DNA of 64,000 bases from a virus (lineage: Duplodnaviria > Caudoviricetes): IMG/VR virus record IMGVR_UViG_3300005439_000018, positions 13,297 through 77,296 of that record; one strand, 5' to 3'. Both the position numbers and the translations under genes were made by a program. Of the stretch, positions 10,061 to 35,164 are shown piece by piece. Within the stretch, counting starts at the first letter, position 1, and each line of letters begins with the position of its first letter. The notes under the pieces were generated by a model. That model saw nothing but the letters and a program-made list of their open reading frames with translations, did not search any database and was not told where the DNA came from.

Positions 10061-10399
10061 TTGCTCTACAACAGCCTGATCGCCCTGTCCACCGCCGCCG
10101 CCGCAACCGGCGCCTTCGTCTGGTCGGTGGTCCACTTCGCCCACCACGAGGACGCCTACTACGGCGGGTGGCTCATCGTGTCCGGGTCGGCGTGGTTCCT
10201 GGCCCTGGCGTTCGCCGCCAGCGTCCTGTTCCATGCCGGTCGGGCGGCTGCCGCCCGGCAGCCCGTCGCGGCCCCCGCACCCGCCCAGGTCCTGGCCTGG
10301 CCGCAGCGCGAGGCCCCCGCCGGTTACGTCCCCATGTCCCAGCGCCCCGACCCGGTCACCCGGATCGACCTGGAGAAGTGGACCCCCCCGGTCGTCTGA
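10061..10399 (+). CDS. Two-TM membrane protein
   Basis: Two hydrophobic helices. Confidence 0.55.
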   Translation: MLYNSLIALSTAAAATGAFVWSVVHFAHHEDAYYGGWLIVSGSAWFLALAFAASVLFHAGRAAAARQPVAAPAPAQVLAWPQREAPAGYVPMSQRPDPVTRIDLEKWTPPVV

Positions 10400-10479: not shown

Positions 10480-12726
10480 GTGAGCATAGGACCCGTGAGG
10501 GTCGGCAGCGTGTGGCTGCCCGACCTGCCCCCGGGCGTCCAGGTGGCATTCGACACCGAGACCTTCGGGCTGTATCCCGACGGCGACCCGGGCGGCGACA
10601 GCGGCGACCCGGGCAGCCCCCCTTCCTGGATCAGCGCCGCGAGCATCGCCTACCGCGACCCGGACACCGGCCACATCGCCAGCCACGCCTGGGGGTTCGA
10701 TCAGGGCCCCTGCCCGGACAAGCCCGGACGGGTGCGCAGGCCCCGGGAGGGGGGTGGCGTGGAGCAGTTCGATCCTGCCAAGATGTTGGCCACCCTGGCC
10801 AAGTACGGGTACGGGTCGCGCGAATTCACCGGCGCCGACTTCCAGTACGAGATGAATAAGAAGGGCACCAAGGTCCGGAAGACCACGGTGACCAACGTGC
10901 AGCGCTGGGTGCCCTGGACCTGGCAGGAAGCGTACCGGTCCGAGAGCCTGGAGTCCTGGCTCAACCTGGTCCGGTGGCTGCGGGACCGTCCTCAGCTGGT
11001 GATGCACAACGCCAAGTTCGACATGACCACCACCCGGCTCGGGCTGCGCCCCGAGGTGGTCGCCCGGAACATCGCGGCCGACCCGGAGCTGTATCTCGGC
11101 ATCGACCCGGGCGACCCGGCCCGGTTCAGCCTGGACCTGGACCGGCTGGCCGACGGCACCCTGCGCCCCGTCCGGGGCGTATGGGACACCATGCTGGTCC
11201 AGTCATTCTTCGACCCCAGGCACCCGGTGGCCCTGAAGAAGACCGGCAAGCGCCTGTGGGGCGACCGGTCGGAGGCGGAGCAGCAGACGCTGCTGGACGC
11301 CATGAAGCGCCAGGGCGTCGGCCTGACCAAGCGGTACGACCTGACCCCGTGGCCGGTCATGGAGCCGTACGCCGCCAAGGATACGGTCCTGACGCTGCTG
11401 CTGGAGGAGCACCAGCGGGCCCGCATCGCCTCCGGCGACCACCCGCCGTGCCTGTGGGAGCAGATCGACAAGGAGTTCGGCCTCATGCGGGTGCTGTACC
11501 GCATGGAGGGCAGGGGGGTGGCGTACGACGTCGCGGGTTCGGAGTCCGGGGCGCGGCTGCTGCGGGAGTCGATGTCCGGGATCGAGGCCCGGCTGCCGTT
11601 CGACCCCAGCAAGCTGGCCTCGGTCAAGCAGTTCTACTTCGCCCCCGAGTACGAGGGCGGGCTGGGCATCGTCCCGCTGAAGACCACTGAGAAGACCGGC
11701 CAGCCGTGCCTGGACGAGGCCCAGGTGCGCATCCTGGTCAACCAGGGGCGGCCCTGGGCGGCCGAGTACGACGAGTGGTCCCACTGCCGCAGCGCACTGG
11801 GCAAGTGGTATGACGGGTGGGCCAAGCGGACCGGCGCCGACGGCCGGTTGCGGACGGTGTTCAAGCAGTGCGTCGTGGCCGAGGAGCGCGCGGGTGCCCG
11901 TACCGGCGGCACCATCAGCGGGCGGCTGGCCGTGGGCCGGGTCCAGCTCCAGGCGATCCCCCACAACCACCAGCTGCCCGAGCCCGTACGGCACCTGCCC
12001 GTACGGTCGCTGATCGGGGCCCGGCCGGGGCACTGCCTGTACGAGATGGACCTGCCGCAGGGAGAGGTGCGGATCGCCACGGTGGTGGTCAACTGCTCGG
12101 CGATGTGGGACGTCATCGACTCGGGCGCCGACCTGCACGGGGAGAACGCCAAGCGCATCTTCGGGATCGGCGAGGACGACGAGCGCTACGAGGCGTACCG
12201 GGGCGTGGCCAAGCGCATCGTGTTCGGCACGCTGTACGGCGCCGGGGTCCGCACCCTGCGCCAGCAGATCCTGGAGTTCACCGGCCTGGACTACAGCGAG
12301 GACGAGACGCGCGAGGCCAAGCAGGCATTCGAGCGTACGTTCCCGGAGTTCCCCCGGGTGGCCCGCCAGATCCAGCGCAAGGCCGACCGGGCGCTGGGCG
12401 GCCCCGGCTACGTGCGGCTGATCGACGGGCGGCGGCGGTGGTTCGGCCCCGAGGAGTACAGCCACAAGGCGTTCAACGCGGTGATCCAGGGCGGCCTGGC
12501 CCAGACCGGCAAGACCTGGATGATCGAGGTCGAGCAGCAGCTGCCCGGCATCCAGGTACTGGCCATCCACGACTCGATCGTGGTCGAGGTCCCCGACAGC
12601 GACTACGGGGAGCACCTGGCCCGCCAGGTCGCCGCGATCGGCAAGGAGGTCTACGAGCGCGATTACGGCGTCCGTGGCCGCACCATGTATTTCGACATCG
12701 TCCCCAAGCGCTGGGGCCATAAGTGA
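10480..12726 (+). CDS. Family A DNA polymerase with 3'-5' exonuclease
   Basis: Exo motifs FDTET, HNAKFD, YAAKD; pol motifs MDLPQGEVR, AKRIVFGTLYG, IHDS. Start chosen at GTG 10480. Confidence 0.93.
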   Translation: MSIGPVRVGSVWLPDLPPGVQVAFDTETFGLYPDGDPGGDSGDPGSPPSWISAASIAYRDPDTGHIASHAWGFDQGPCPDKPGRVRRPREGGGVEQFDPAKMLATLAKYGYGSREFTGADFQYEMNKKGTKVRKTTVTNVQRWVPWTWQEAYRSESLESWLNLVRWLRDRPQLVMHNAKFDMTTTRLGLRPEVVARNIAADPELYLGIDPGDPARFSLDLDRLADGTLRPVRGVWDTMLVQSFFDPRHPVALKKTGKRLWGDRSEAEQQTLLDAMKRQGVGLTKRYDLTPWPVMEPYAAKDTVLTLLLEEHQRARIASGDHPPCLWEQIDKEFGLMRVLYRMEGRGVAYDVAGSESGARLLRESMSGIEARLPFDPSKLASVKQFYFAPEYEGGLGIVPLKTTEKTGQPCLDEAQVRILVNQGRPWAAEYDEWSHCRSALGKWYDGWAKRTGADGRLRTVFKQCVVAEERAGARTGGTISGRLAVGRVQLQAIPHNHQLPEPVRHLPVRSLIGARPGHCLYEMDLPQGEVRIATVVVNCSAMWDVIDSGADLHGENAKRIFGIGEDDERYEAYRGVAKRIVFGTLYGAGVRTLRQQILEFTGLDYSEDETREAKQAFERTFPEFPRVARQIQRKADRALGGPGYVRLIDGRRRWFGPEEYSHKAFNAVIQGGLAQTGKTWMIEVEQQLPGIQVLAIHDSIVVEVPDSDYGEHLARQVAAIGKEVYERDYGVRGRTMYFDIVPKRWGHK

Positions 12727-14442: not shown

Positions 14443-14943
14443 GTGGCCATAGACTGGAGCACCGATCTGTTCTGGAGCATCGACCCCGGTGAATCGAAGT
14501 GTGGTGTTGCCATCTTCCACCGGGGCCGGTGCGTGCAGGCGTTGCAGAGCACGCCCGACGTGTGCCTGGACAAGCTGTGGGAGCACCTGGGCTTCGGGGC
14601 GCCGGTAGCGCGCCCCGCCGGTCTGGTCATCGAGCGGTTCGCCCTGAGGCCCGACCTGGCCCACCAGCAGACGGGCTCGGAGATGGGGACCAGCCAGATG
14701 ATCGGGGCCGTACGCTGGATGGCCCGCCACCGCAGTACCCCGCTGGTGGTGCAGACCCCCTCCCAGGCCCACAGCCTGGAGAAGTCGGCCGCGTGGAAGG
14801 ACCGCCCCCTGCGCTGGTGGGCCAGCTACGGGCACGGGCGCGACGCCAAGATGGCCGAGCTGCACGGATACTTCCGCATCTCGACCTCGATGAGCGGCGC
14901 GTCCGAACGTGCACGTTGGCTGGCCGCCCTTGGCACGGAGTGA
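14443..14943 (+). CDS. RuvC-like Holliday junction resolvase
   Basis: SIDPG...GVA, VIERF, IGAV, HGRDA. Confidence 0.75.
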   Translation: MAIDWSTDLFWSIDPGESKCGVAIFHRGRCVQALQSTPDVCLDKLWEHLGFGAPVARPAGLVIERFALRPDLAHQQTGSEMGTSQMIGAVRWMARHRSTPLVVQTPSQAHSLEKSAAWKDRPLRWWASYGHGRDAKMAELHGYFRISTSMSGASERARWLAALGTE

Positions 14944-14965: not shown

Positions 14966-15478
14966 ATGGCAGAAAAACCCGTACTGGCGTGGCTGGCCGC
15001 GCTGATCGACGGTGAGGGGTCCGTGATGCTGAACAAGCGGACCTACTCGGGCAATACTGCCTCGACCATGGAGCGCGGGGGCATCCATTACCGGGCCGTG
15101 GTGGTGGTGGCGTGCAACACGGACTACAGGCTGATGGAGGCCATCGGCGACCGGATGGGCGTCGGCCAGATCTACCAGCACCGGATCAACGGGGACCCGA
15201 GAACCCCGCGCAAGCGGGCGCAGTGGACGTACAGGCTTAACGCCGGACAGATCAGGGAGTGGCTTCCCGAGATCCGTCCGTGGCTGGTTCTCAAAGGAGA
15301 ACAGGCCGACCTGCTCATGGAGTCGCTGGACATCAAGACCCAGCTGACACCGGGCAACGCGGGTTTCCTACCGGCGAACCGGCCGCCTCTGCTGGAGCGG
15401 CTCGACGCCATCTACACCGAGATTCGCCGCCTGAACACCAGGGGGCGCGAGACACAGGAAGCGGGTGATGCCAAGTGA
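14966..15478 (+). CDS. Free-standing single-motif LAGLIDADG homing endonuclease
   Basis: LAWLAALIDGEGSV motif; PWLVLKGEQA...L typical of the family; atypical codon usage. Confidence 0.85.
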   Translation: MAEKPVLAWLAALIDGEGSVMLNKRTYSGNTASTMERGGIHYRAVVVVACNTDYRLMEAIGDRMGVGQIYQHRINGDPRTPRKRAQWTYRLNAGQIREWLPEIRPWLVLKGEQADLLMESLDIKTQLTPGNAGFLPANRPPLLERLDAIYTEIRRLNTRGRETQEAGDAK

Positions 15479-16603
15479 GCGGGAAGGTCTACGTTGTTGT
15501 GGGTGGACAGTACGGCTCCGAATTACGAGGGCAAGGGAGCTGTGGCAGGTAGAATCTGCCGAGACCTGGCCGAGCGCGGGCAGCAGGTGATCGGGGTCCG
15601 GATCGGCGGGCCCAACGCGGGGCACACGGTGCTGGGCCGCTGCCCGGCCGACTGCGGCGACGCGGGCGCCCACGGCGCCGGGCCCCGTCCGGCCCACCCG
15701 TGGCGGCTGCGGCAGGTCCCGGTGTCGGTGGTGACGGCGCCGGGGTCGTGGGCCGTGATCGCGGCCGGGTCCGAGGTCGACCAGCGGGTGCTGGAGCGGG
15801 AGATCGTCGAGCTGGACAGCGCCGGGTACAACGCCTCCGGGCGTCTGGCCGTCGACCGGTCGGCGACCATCCTGCACGACGGGAACATCCTGGAGGAGCA
15901 GGCTCTGGAGCTCCAGGCCAGCATCGGCTCGACGGCCAAGGGCATCGGGTCGGCGCGGGCCGCCCGCATCTGGCGGATGGCCAGCACCTGGGGCCAGGCC
16001 ACCGGCGGCGGGTGGGACACGGCGGCCGAGCTGCGGGCCCGGCTGTATGAGGACGACGTGGCCGTGGTCGTCGAGGGCACCCAGGGGTACGGGCTGGGGC
16101 TGCACACCGAGAACTACCCCCGGGTCACCAGCGGCGACTGCCGGGCCGTGGACTTCCTGGCCCAGGCCGGGGTCAGCCCCTGGCAGCAGGGGGTCGGCCT
16201 GCGGGTGCTGGTCTGCCTGCGCCCCTACCCGATACGGGTCGCGGGCAACAGCGGGCCGATGAAGGACGAGACCACCTGGGAGGCGCTGGGGCTGCCCGCC
16301 GAGCACACCACCGTCACCCAGAAGGTCCGGCGGGTCGGCGCCTGGGATCCCGAGCTCGCCCGGGCCGCGATGCTGGCCAACGGGGGCCCGAGCAGGGGGG
16401 TGGTGTGGGCCGCGCTGACCATGATGGACAGCGTCGACCCGGAGCTGGCCGGGGCCGACGGGCACGTTCCGGCGTGGTCCGAGTCGACCGCCCCCAAGTG
16501 CACCCGGGACTACCTGCACTCGTTCGGCTGGAACGCCGGGCACCTGGCCTACGTCGGCACCGGCCCCGACACCGCGCTCGTGAACGAGAGGATCTACCGC
16601 TGA
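15475..16603 (+). CDS. purZ: PurZ/PurZ0-family adenylosuccinate synthetase homolog with a 7-nt coding gap at 15523-15529
   Basis: GTG at 15475 gives MSGKVYVVVGGQYGSE; the +1 frame continues GKG...GGPNAGHT...EGTQGYGL...YPRVTS...RVAGNSGP...TTVTQKVRRVG. Ser replaces the PurA catalytic Asp (GSEGKG versus GDEGKG). Confidence 0.85.
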
Positions 16604-17100: not shown

Positions 17101-17424
17101 GTGGCGCGCAAGACGGGCGGGAATCCGGCAGCCCACCGGGTCCGGATCCCGCCCACCCCCGGTACCCAGCTGTCCACCGGGCTGCACTGGCTGGCCCTGT
17201 CCAGCCGGGGGCGGCTGTCCAACGACGTGATCGCGGCGGCGATCCGGCACCAGCACGAGCGCGACACCGACCCGTCGGTGCTGATCGCGGCGGCGGTGCA
17301 GTACCTGGTGTCCGGGTGCGACTCCGCCGAGGACCGCGTCAACCGGTATTGGCACATAGCCGACCAGGTGTCGGCCCGCGCGAGGGCGCGGTATCTCAAC
17401 ATCGAAGAGGGTGAGCTCATATGA
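17101..17424 (+). CDS. Hypothetical protein
   Basis: GGAG RBS; phage-like codons. Confidence 0.6.
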   Translation: MARKTGGNPAAHRVRIPPTPGTQLSTGLHWLALSSRGRLSNDVIAAAIRHQHERDTDPSVLIAAAVQYLVSGCDSAEDRVNRYWHIADQVSARARARYLNIEEGELI

Positions 17425-18344
17425 GGATGGCGTACCTGGCCGGTCCGATAGACCAGGTGTTCAACCAGTCCCGGGAGTCGGCGCGGGTCTGGGACGAGCT
17501 GCGGTCGCGGGTGGTCCACGACCTGACCGGTGCCGGGTTCGAGGTGTTCCGGCCGGACCGGGCGTTCCACACCGCCAGCCAGTCGGCCGCCATCCAGCGG
17601 GTCAACAACGCCGTGATCGACATGTGCCAGGCGGGGGTGGTGTTCCTGCCCTCGGGCGTCCCGACGCTGGGCACGCCGGTTGAGGTCGAGCGCATGCTGG
17701 CCCGCCGGATGCCGGTGCTGGTGGTCAGCGACGTGCTGTTCTCGGTGCAGCTGGCCGACTGGGCCGACCGGGGGGCGGTGGTGTGCGCCCCGGACCTGGT
17801 GGCCGAGAACCTGATGGTGCTGGCCCGCGCGGTCACCGAGGCCCAGAACCGGCCGACGCTGCGGCGTGCGGCCGAGCAGCTGGCCTCCCAGCTGCGGCAG
17901 GGGAACCCGGCGTTCGGGCCCCGGCCGCTGGTGTTCGAGGCGATGCGGGAGGGGGCGGTGCTGCCCAGCCGGGGCTACGAGGACGACGCGGGGCTGGACC
18001 TGTACGTCAGCGAGGGGGTCGTGATCGAGCCCCACTCGTTCAAGGACGTGCCGTGCGGCGTCTCGGTCGACATCCCGGACGGGTACTGGGGGATGATCAC
18101 CGGCCGCAGCTCGACCCTGCGGCGCCACGGCCTGCTGGTCTCCCAGGGGGTGATCGACGCGGGCTGGACCGGCGAGCTGTTCGCCGGGGTGCAGAACCTG
18201 ACCGACCGTACGGTGGGGATCGGGGCGGGCGACCGGCTGGCCCAGCTGATCCTGCTCCCGGCGCCGGTGCGGGACCGGGCCCCCGAGTGGGGACGGGTGC
18301 CCGCCAAGGCCCGGGGGACCAACGGGTTCGGGAGCACCGGGTGA
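17421..18344 (+). CDS. Nucleoside 2-deoxyribosyltransferase-like domain fused to a trimeric dUTPase-like domain
   Basis: N-terminal YLAGP...F.P...GT.VE (NDT fold); C-terminal AGLDL, GRSS, GVIDAGWTGEL, RLAQL, RGTNGFGSTG. Confidence 0.8.
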   Translation: MRMAYLAGPIDQVFNQSRESARVWDELRSRVVHDLTGAGFEVFRPDRAFHTASQSAAIQRVNNAVIDMCQAGVVFLPSGVPTLGTPVEVERMLARRMPVLVVSDVLFSVQLADWADRGAVVCAPDLVAENLMVLARAVTEAQNRPTLRRAAEQLASQLRQGNPAFGPRPLVFEAMREGAVLPSRGYEDDAGLDLYVSEGVVIEPHSFKDVPCGVSVDIPDGYWGMITGRSSTLRRHGLLVSQGVIDAGWTGELFAGVQNLTDRTVGIGAGDRLAQLILLPAPVRDRAPEWGRVPAKARGTNGFGSTG

Positions 18345-30891: not shown

Positions 30892-31104
30892 GTGGACCAC
30901 CCCGACGGCTTCCTGACCGCCGAGCAGTTCTACCGGTCGATCGAGGCGGTGGAGCGCCAGCCAACGAACCCCGCACAGTACCTGATGCTGCCCGACTGGT
31001 TTCCCGCCGCCCAGCGCGACTTTGCCGACGAATGGGCGAAGCAGCACGGCTGGGCGGGGGTGGCGTACCACACCCGGACCAAGAGAGGCCGCCCCTGTGT
31101 CTGA
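30892..31104 (+). CDS. Hypothetical protein
   Basis: Short ORF before the HNH gene. Confidence 0.45.
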   Translation: MDHPDGFLTAEQFYRSIEAVERQPTNPAQYLMLPDWFPAAQRDFADEWAKQHGWAGVAYHTRTKRGRPCV

Positions 31105-31519
31105 GAGTCCAGAGGAGAGGCGCCGGAAGGCCCGCGACCGCCAGCGAGATAAGCGGTCTACCCCGGAAGGCCGCCGTGCTTGGAATGATCGACATAATGA
31201 GCGCACTCGTGAGGCACGCCGCAAGTTGCGCCTGTTGGTTCTGGATTACTATGGTGGGGCGTGTGCGTGCTGCGGCGAGAGTCGAGAGCCGTTTCTGGTC
31301 ATCGACCACATGGACGGTGGCGGAAACGACCACCGCGAGGAGATCAAGCCGTCTGCCACGCACGGCAGGGGCGGCGGTGGAGCGCACATGTATAAGTGGC
31401 TCGTGGCGAACGACTTCCCGCCCGGGTTTCAAGTGCTGTGCGCAAACTGCAACATGGCCAAGGATCGTCCGGGCGGATGCCCGCATACCTGGAAGGAGGA
31501 CCAACACCACTATGACTGA
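31097..31519 (+). CDS. Free-standing HNH homing endonuclease
   Basis: YGGACACCGE...IDHMDGGG...LCANCNMAK; atypical codon usage. Confidence 0.88.
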   Translation: MSESPEERRRKARDRQRDKRSTPEGRRAWNDRHNERTREARRKLRLLVLDYYGGACACCGESREPFLVIDHMDGGGNDHREEIKPSATHGRGGGGAHMYKWLVANDFPPGFQVLCANCNMAKDRPGGCPHTWKEDQHHYD

Positions 31520-35112: not shown

Positions 35113-35164
35113 CTCGGTTCTCCTTCTTCCGAGGGCCGGGCCCCTCCCGGCCCCTCTGAATAAA

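Follow-up and report, generated by a model that had tools for sequence, protein, structure and literature searches.

A recurrent 5- to 7-nucleotide coding gap in phage purZ, linked to an upstream LAGLIDADG endonuclease gene, as a candidate ribosome-hopping cassette

The gene purZ of an uncultured virus (Duplodnaviria; Caudoviricetes; IMG/VR record IMGVR_UViG_3300005439_000018) lies in two reading frames that meet within the P-loop coding sequence at a gap of seven nucleotides (nt), and it is directly preceded by a gene for a predicted LAGLIDADG homing endonuclease (Table 1). The 64,000-nt stretch of DNA that was analysed, here called the window, corresponds to bases 13297-77296 of a complete 77,296-bp record with terminal repeats from a metagenome assembly. 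The GC content of the phage is 69.5%. Positions are given in window coordinates, and related loci and PurZ sequences are referred to by L and P numbers respectively.

Table 1. Features of the purZ locus in the window
Feature	Position	Strand	Description
LAGLIDADG homing endonuclease gene (predicted)	14966..15478	+	170 amino acids; single motif LAALIDGEGS; TGA 15476-78 overlaps purZ GTG 15475
Purine-rich Shine-Dalgarno-like stretch GGAAGCGGGTG	15457..15467	+	8-18 nt ahead of the purZ start, within the 3' end of the endonuclease gene
purZ segment 1	15475..15522	+	frame 0, 16 codons, VSGKVYVVVGGQYGSE; strand beta-1 and first half of the P-loop, PurZ-specific Ser included
Putative take-off codon GAA (Glu16)	15520..15522	+	fixed in 6/6 type 1 lineages
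7-nt coding gap TTACGAG	15523..15529	+	TTA 15523-25 (A site), spacer C, putative landing codon GAG 15527-29
purZ segment 2	15530..16603	+	+1 frame, GKGAVAGRICRDL..., ending at TGA 16601-03
Frame-0 stop TAG	15550..15552	+	reached on normal decoding of TTA; 25-residue dead-end peptide
Fused DmtZ-DutZ-like gene	17421..18344	+	Pfam dUTPase 4.7e-25 and Nuc_deoxyrib_tr 7e-5 (N-domain nucleoside deoxyribosyltransferase-like)

From GTG 15475, frame 0 reads VSGKVYVVVGGQYGSE, then TTA, then CGA GGG CAA GGG AGC TGT GGC AGG, and closes at TAG 15550-52. An open +1 frame extends from 15479 to TGA 16601-03 and contains ..APNYEGKGAVAGRICRDL.. in its course. The called purZ open reading frame (ORF) begins at TTG 15494 (MLWVDSTAPNYEGKG) and is missing the P-loop; gene callers start there or later. 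When the seven bases 15523-15529 are dropped, so that reading steps from GAA 15520 to GAG 15527 and goes on with GGC AAG GGA, the loop GQYGSEGKG is obtained exactly. The first-pass annotation of this DNA had described a 7-nt insert that a Glu-to-Glu hop of this geometry would repair, and a called ORF from 15494 that lacks the P-loop; frames, coordinates and the TTG start were confirmed, as was the exact restoration of GSEGKG by omission. PurZ of Streptomyces phage Keanu starts with VGKLIVVAGAQYGSEAKGHVV and contains the loop G-S-E-[GA]-K-G in one frame, and the loop shows zero length variation in about 105 intact homologues. Because Keanu and these homologues read the loop in one frame and at constant length, the purZ of the window holds exactly 7 extra nt. 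The 5' end of a gapless purZ, of the type found in L014, reads GGCTCCGAGGGCAAGGG. Both the Shine-Dalgarno-like stretch GGAAGCGGGTG and the start GTGAGC are kept in L003, L004, L007, L050 and L051.

The purZ finding of the first-pass annotation was silent on the gene directly upstream. Taken alone, the product of this gene scores 19.1 bits with Pfam LAGLIDADG_1, under the cut-off of 23.1. A profile of 28 endonuclease sequences matches I-MsoI and I-CreI over most of its length with E values of 4e-9 to 1e-3, LAGLIDADG_1 is matched by 12 of the 28 family members, and residues D15 G16 E17 G18 S19 are invariant in the 28 homologues. The gene is predicted to encode a LAGLIDADG homing endonuclease of the I-CreI/I-MsoI-like, homodimeric type. 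Close homologues were found in metagenomes only; cultured phages contain relatives at about 30% identity, some of them annotated as LAGLIDADG endonuclease, and the profile had no match in genome contigs. In L050 (1858-2400) the endonuclease stop is lost and the frame runs on into the purZ 5' segment (..KGREPKKEGWCQVSSKLYVVVGGQFGSEL and a stop), so that a fusion of 180 amino acids (aa) is called. A 30% homologue in L045 (1856-3448), and also in L046-L049, lies in low-GC phages between ORFs of 184 and 128 aa which resemble the two parts of a single structural gene; an insertion of intron or cassette type may have taken place here.

Segment 2 matches Pfam Adenylsucc_synt (E 3e-21). The best solved relative is 7vf6, a PurA-like (PurZ0) adenylosuccinate synthetase (E 8e-74), and the alignment starts from chain residue 16; the orphan 5' segment is therefore the counterpart of residues 1-15 in the solved enzyme. 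The Ser of GSE that adjoins the gap is encoded in the frame-0 segment and is the PurZ hallmark that replaces Asp13 of PurA. It has been reported that all 147 phage PurZ sequences have Ser in place of this Asp, that dutZ is present in all 98 PurZ0 genomes and that it is fused to dmtZ in 77 of them (PMC12884076). The DmtZ-DutZ-like fusion near purZ fits this pattern of PurZ0-type Z-genome phages; an HD-domain DatZ was not found in the genome. It is predicted that purZ is a gene for a PurZ0-type 2-aminoadenylosuccinate synthetase and that the phage has Z-DNA. Its nearest cultured relatives are Streptomyces phages of Hiyaavirus, with 37-53% protein identity.

Both parts of the gene show signs of use. 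Among the six type 1 lineages (defined below) the V-V-V-G-G codons of the 5' segment vary at third positions only and the other changes are conservative (Y/F, V/L, G/S), while the approximately 360 codons downstream of the gap are open in all lineages. This comparison indicates that both purZ halves are under purifying selection. The +1 frame contains a stop inside segment 1, just ahead of the gap, in L003, L004 and L007, and since that frame is closed there, the first strand and half-loop cannot come from an alternative start. On this ground, initiation in the +1 frame was rejected. A second purZ copy was likewise ruled out, purZ being the only PF00709 gene in the genome; transcriptional slippage was rejected as a homopolymer is absent at the site, and a split enzyme of two peptides because the break falls inside the P-loop. 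Because both halves are selected, the only PF00709 gene of the genome is concerned and the DmtZ-DutZ partner is kept, a decaying pseudogene appears very unlikely, and some form of recoding would join the two frames. Random decay, an outcome envisaged when the hop was first proposed, was not seen among the lineages.

The gap occurs at the same loop in at least ten divergent lineages whose homologues are 50-65% identical to the window (49-63% by tblastn). An alignment of homologues with and without the insert thus sets at least ten gapped lineages beside about 105 intact loops of constant length. Four forms were distinguished. Type 1, GGC TCC GAA-TTAC-GAG GGC AAG, is found in the window, L003 and L004/L009, with the variants GAA-TTAC-GAA in L007 and GAA-TTAT-GAA in L050 and L051. 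Type 2, GGC TCT-TTAC-TCC GAG GGT AAA, is found in L005 and L006, which belong to a different PurZ clade; type 3, GGC TCC-TTATGCC-GAG GCT AAA, in L024; and type 4, GGC TCC-TAGCT-GAA GGT AAA, in L053/L054, a phage of approximately 45.8 kb for whose endonuclease protein the contig collection has index entries in 38 blocks. G-S-E-[GA]-K-G is restored in every gapped case once 7 (or 5) bases are skipped. All forms follow a common plan in which a correct codon is followed by a slow A-site codon, 1-2 bases, a landing triplet and the codon at which reading would resume. The A-site codon is TTA in nine of the ten gapped lineages (three of the four forms) and the stop TAG in L053/L054, and the take-off tRNA has a cognate triplet just ahead of the resume codon in 8/10 lineages (GAA to GAG or GAA, TCT to TCC). 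The position of the frame-0 stop varies: TGA comes directly after TTA in L050 and L051, TAA stands four codons past TTA in L005, L006 and L024, and there is no stop nearby in L004 and L007.

Several gapped lineages are represented by single short contigs. The gap status of P0005 was taken from its protein N-terminus, and P0027 was excluded from the counts. A DNA pattern merged from types 1 and 2 had no match in viral contigs and found in metagenome contigs only the L004 lineage again, together with L009; a single-protein search of viral contigs for related loci gave no match. When a word search was confined to residues 1-40 of the called ORF, the window cluster and P0005 were its only matches; it is too insensitive for lineage counts.

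Every endonuclease homologue with readable surroundings lies directly upstream of purZ, namely those of the window, L005, L006, L007, L024, L050, L051, L052 and L053. Eight of these nine endonuclease-bearing lineages are gapped, and their genome contexts are otherwise different. Conversely, among loci ascertained through purZ, a LAGLIDADG gene stands upstream in 7/9 gapped lineages vs 0/31 gapless loci on viral contigs; a Fisher test on slightly different counts (8/10 vs 0/30) gave p ~6e-7, a value to be read with the lineages being not fully independent. Two endonuclease homologues that were fetched blind also adjoin purZ. On a PurZ tree of 121 sequences, with the loop region excluded, the 11 gapped rows require 11 changes between gap and intact state, which is not below the number in shuffles, although the tree came from a quick search with many weak deeper forks and the exact number of changes is soft. 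Well-supported sisters mix the two states: gapped P0023 groups with intact P0020 and P0024 (84-87% identity), and further mixed pairs are P0009 with P0014 and P0031 with P0030. Around the start, in the interval of about -62 to +58 nt, nucleotide identity is 0.50/0.72/0.85/0.90 for gapped type 1 sequences vs 0.24/0.34/0.72/0.78 for gapless ones, while beyond these limits the identities of gapped and gapless pairs are equal. The first 26 called residues of P0005 are those of the window at an overall identity of 63%. Joint transfer of endonuclease gene, purZ start and gap by homing, with co-conversion over a short tract, would be expected to leave such a pattern. The gap is linked to the endonuclease, patchily distributed, recurrent and under selection.

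We consider it fairly probable that the locus holds a mobile cassette of nuclease and gap, decoded by a +7 hop that is triggered by a slow A-site codon. The cassette would consist of the I-CreI-like endonuclease gene, the ribosome-binding site of purZ and the first ~60 nt of purZ. Translation would start at GTG 15475 and proceed until GAA (Glu16) is in the P site; with UUA in the A site the ribosome would wait, the peptidyl-tRNA-Glu would release GAA, the mRNA would slide by 7 nt and the tRNA would re-pair at GAG 15527-29. Decoding would resume at GGC AAG GGA and yield the normal loop GQYGSEGKG, whereas ribosomes that decode UUA instead would terminate at TAG 15550. If recoding of some kind takes place, a hop is the probable form of it, and the forms of the gap match the known rules for peptidyl-tRNA hopping as far as their sequences go. 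UUA is the rarest sense codon of the phage, with 2 occurrences in the 18,691 codons of a cleaned ORF set, which bears out the scarcity of TTA claimed in the first-pass annotation from a spot check; a tRNA scan found no tRNA-Leu(UAA) encoded by the phage. The take-off codons GAA and TCT are minority codons (GAA 105 vs GAG 871 in the genome; TCT 24 vs 392) and both end in A or U. A whole-genome scan for further sites that combine TTA with a change of frame found purZ alone convincing. The two in-frame TTAs of the cleaned ORF set lie at 10324, upstream of the start of DNA polymerase homology and probably outside the gene, and at 35163, as codon 11 of a 136-aa minus-strand ORF.

As to purpose, the gap would break the endonuclease's own target in purZ, and so confer self-immunity, while the protein is left unchanged, as in the mobA/gene 60 system of phage T4. 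This logic is favoured because of the linkage, the patchy distribution and the limitation of sequence similarity to the cassette. The common gapless sequence GGCTCC-N9-GGAGCC is pseudo-palindromic and the gap widens its spacer; we infer only from this symmetry that it would suit an I-CreI-type dimer as target. A side effect of the arrangement would be that PurZ output drops as host tRNA-Leu(UAA) rises.

Several observations weigh against a nuclease-linked hop of this kind. L003 and L004 are gapped without a LAGLIDADG gene. Both keep a 3' remnant of the endonuclease (..EAGGAK and the stop) before purZ, which indicates that the endonuclease was lost or replaced. In the opposite case, L052 (2501-4115; GCA_037024395.1, JBAIGV010000121.1; 52.7% GC), the endonuclease adjoins a purZ without a gap. 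The unbroken loop of L052 uses different codons, GGA AGT GAA GGC AAA GGG, and immunity may be provided there by synonymous recoding instead of a gap. The landing triplet is matched at only 2/3 positions in L024 and L053 (TCC to GCC and GCT). A stimulatory RNA structure was not found with RNAalifold on nine gapped 5' regions, and the minimum free energy z-score of the window was -1.1; the lone consensus stem is forced by Gly-Ser and Gly-Ala codons and covariation is absent. Short hops measured in Escherichia coli are usually inefficient, and PurZ is presumably needed in quantity. Finally, the substitutions within the gap (C/T, G/A) are silent in the +1 frame as well (TAY = Tyr, GAR = Glu), so that they fail to exclude a +1 shift at the same place.

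A rather unlikely alternative retains the hop and gives it a regulatory purpose. As the first-pass annotation had suggested, UUA would tie the synthesis of PurZ and Z-DNA to the host bldA tRNA as a developmental sensor. On this view the link to the endonuclease would be secondary. TTA is indeed kept in 3/4 gap forms and 9/10 lineages although the phage hardly uses this codon elsewhere, the nearest cultured relatives infect Streptomyces, and a regulatory model has been published for the terminase gene of phiHau3 (PMC10732093). Against this, a stop TAG occupies the place of TTA in L053/L054, so a bldA-specific signal is not required; the substitution indicates that any slow A-site codon may serve. 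The gap also tracks the endonuclease and the boundaries of the cassette rather than phage phylogeny, close gapless relatives manage without such a switch, and the proteins of the nearest Streptomyces phages are only 37-53% identical. The endonuclease linkage appears from these comparisons to be the better-supported reason for the gap. Dependence on bldA is a possible consequence of hop efficiency falling with tRNA-Leu(UAA), and is weakened as the purpose of the gap.

The main rival for the decoding itself is a +1 frameshift at the slow UUA, of the Ty3-like kind, in which Tyr-tRNA would be accepted on the overlapping UAC and the loop would become two residues longer (GSE-YE-GKG). We regard this as unlikely. 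A frameshift would explain why every TTA form has a Tyr codon (TAC or TAT) in the overlapping position, why changes at the two variable positions of the gap are silent in that frame and why the gap is free of +1-frame stops. A lengthened loop is at odds with the constant length of G-S-E-[GA]-K-G in the intact homologues, and the extra residues would moreover come at two sites, following Glu in type 1 but Ser in types 2 and 3. In contrast to frameshift sites of the prfB and Ty types, tRNA-Glu in the P site would be unable to re-pair when moved from GAA to AAU, and the 5-nt form TAGCT is incompatible with reading by a +1 shift. In phiHau3 a +1-frame stop introduced in the gap left recoding undiminished (PMC10732093).

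Far less probable is that purZ is dead, the insert being damage from the endonuclease or a hitch-hiking mutation in a phage that lives without PurZ. The annotated ORF lacks the P-loop, as a dead gene might, and homing endonucleases can carry deleterious changes along; on the other side stand the absence of extra stops or frameshifts from ~360 codons in ten lineages at 50-65% identity, the purely synonymous changes in the VVVGG codons of the orphan 5' segment, the lack of another purZ copy and the retained DmtZ-DutZ partner gene. An assembly or sequencing artefact, which a metagenome-derived record might invite and which the first-pass annotation had wished to see checked, is already refuted by recurrence: the 50-kb contig L010 from another JGI sample has the same 7 nt in an alignment with 4 mismatches and 0 gaps over 7,110 nt (99.94% identity), the identical called purZ protein is also present on a Logan run-level contig, and many divergent lineages hold the gap in its four forms.

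An analogue of the proposed cassette is the gene 60/mobA element of T4 (Bonocora et al. 2011; Manning and Atkins 2022, 10.1101/2022.08.31.505936). Gene 60 contains a 50-nt bypass inside the mobA element, and the coding gaps of such elements begin with a stop or hungry codon (10.1101/2022.08.31.505936). The gap disrupts the target of the nuclease itself and ribosomes restore the protein (PMC5009743; 10.1101/2022.08.31.505936). The two systems share a free-standing homing endonuclease situated directly upstream of an essential enzyme gene whose coding sequence is interrupted by a gap, co-travel of the two with a patchy distribution, a stop or hungry codon where the gap begins, matching take-off and landing codons and a proposed role in self-protection. 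They differ in that the gap in purZ is 5-7 nt and not 50, the nuclease is LAGLIDADG and not HNH, a hairpin or nascent-peptide signal is not evident and only 16 residues would be in the nascent chain at take-off. The purZ cassette lacks sequence homology with the T4 element and is an analogue of it, not a member.

The precedent of phiHau3, to which the first-pass annotation had appealed, proved to be a published proposal of UUA bypass. In phiHau3, StrepC.1 and a Streptomyces catenulae prophage (Smith et al. 2013; Antonov et al. 2023, PMC10732093) the terminase gene has UUA followed by a gap of 7 or 10 nt, and the junction peptide was found by mass spectrometry in E. coli. The purZ site shares with these genes UUA directly after the last conserved codon, a 7-nt non-coding block whose omission restores the conserved junction, a landing codon, a high-GC actinophage genome and the argument from an invariant junction against frameshifting. 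It differs from them in that the gene serves nucleotide metabolism and is not a terminase, that a version with UAG exists, and that the gap goes with a homing endonuclease and travels from genome to genome; the word homing is absent from PMC10732093. Neither a 5' stem-loop nor a Shine-Dalgarno stimulator was detected at purZ, where the hop is a prediction from sequence. Hopping on reporters in E. coli (Weiss et al. 1987; Gallant and Lindsley 1998, cited in PMC10732093) likewise involves a short forward hop to a cognate codon at a slow A site. Those cases are constructs made in the laboratory or low-efficiency errors, whereas the purZ site is kept in natural genes whose product is needed.

Other observations concern the neighbourhood of purZ and the rest of the window. 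A conserved 166-aa gene with no Pfam hit (14443-14943) lies ahead of the endonuclease gene, and directly ahead of purZ in gapless relatives. Its junction with purZ is an insertion point for the LAGLIDADG gene, for an HNH-like ORF in L003 and for the 141-aa genes of P0005 and P0027. The L003 ORF (3301-3885, 194 aa) sits in the place of the LAGLIDADG gene, is unrelated to it and has HNH-like Cys/His motifs (..EIDHIDGGGSEH.., ..CANCHAAKTRG..) with no significant Pfam hit; a distant homologue lies upstream of a RuvC-like gene in L014 and L017. L004 has no ORF at this position. Elsewhere in the window an HNH-type ORF at 31022-31519 (..CANCNMAKDRPGGCPH..) overlaps ATG 31512 of a small gene whose frame ends at TAG 31587 and which has an apparent continuation, ..GFLFATKKPFAHKWAEQ.., in another frame from ~31589 (region to 31708). 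The two parts are separated by approximately 8 nt including the stop, and no homologue was found in cultured phages. ARAGORN reported a 90-nt tRNA-Pro(CGG) at 11512-11601, within the DNA polymerase I gene (~10480-12726; homologue of Keanu gp54); this call is probably false.

Natural programmed bypassing is, to our knowledge, limited to very few cases, namely T4 gene 60 and its relatives, Magnusiomyces mitochondria and, as a proposal, the phiHau3 terminase. A literature search found no paper reporting a gap in purZ or linking UUA gaps to homing endonucleases. The chances appear evenly balanced that I-CreI-like endonucleases spread among Z-genome actinophages with the smallest known natural hop cassettes (5-7 nt), by which they would destroy their own target, and that the amount of the Z enzyme is set by the speed at which UUA is read. 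The purZ loci provide a natural set of variants in take-off codon (Glu/Ser), trigger (UUA/UAG), length of gap (5/7 nt) and landing triplet (cognate/near-cognate), which could define minimal rules for a hop and is readily transferred to reporters. They also join two ideas that have been kept apart, the UUA bypass of actinophages, which has been read as regulation, and the T4 combination of an endonuclease with a protective gap; the connection suggests that homing endonucleases may in general have left short UUA gaps behind as scars. As gene callers shorten gapped purZ genes (338-369 aa are called, with no P-loop), surveys of Z genomes can overlook such genes or wrongly list them as defective. 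Should the hop depend on tRNA-Leu(UAA), the synthesis of a modified base would be coupled to the physiology of the host.

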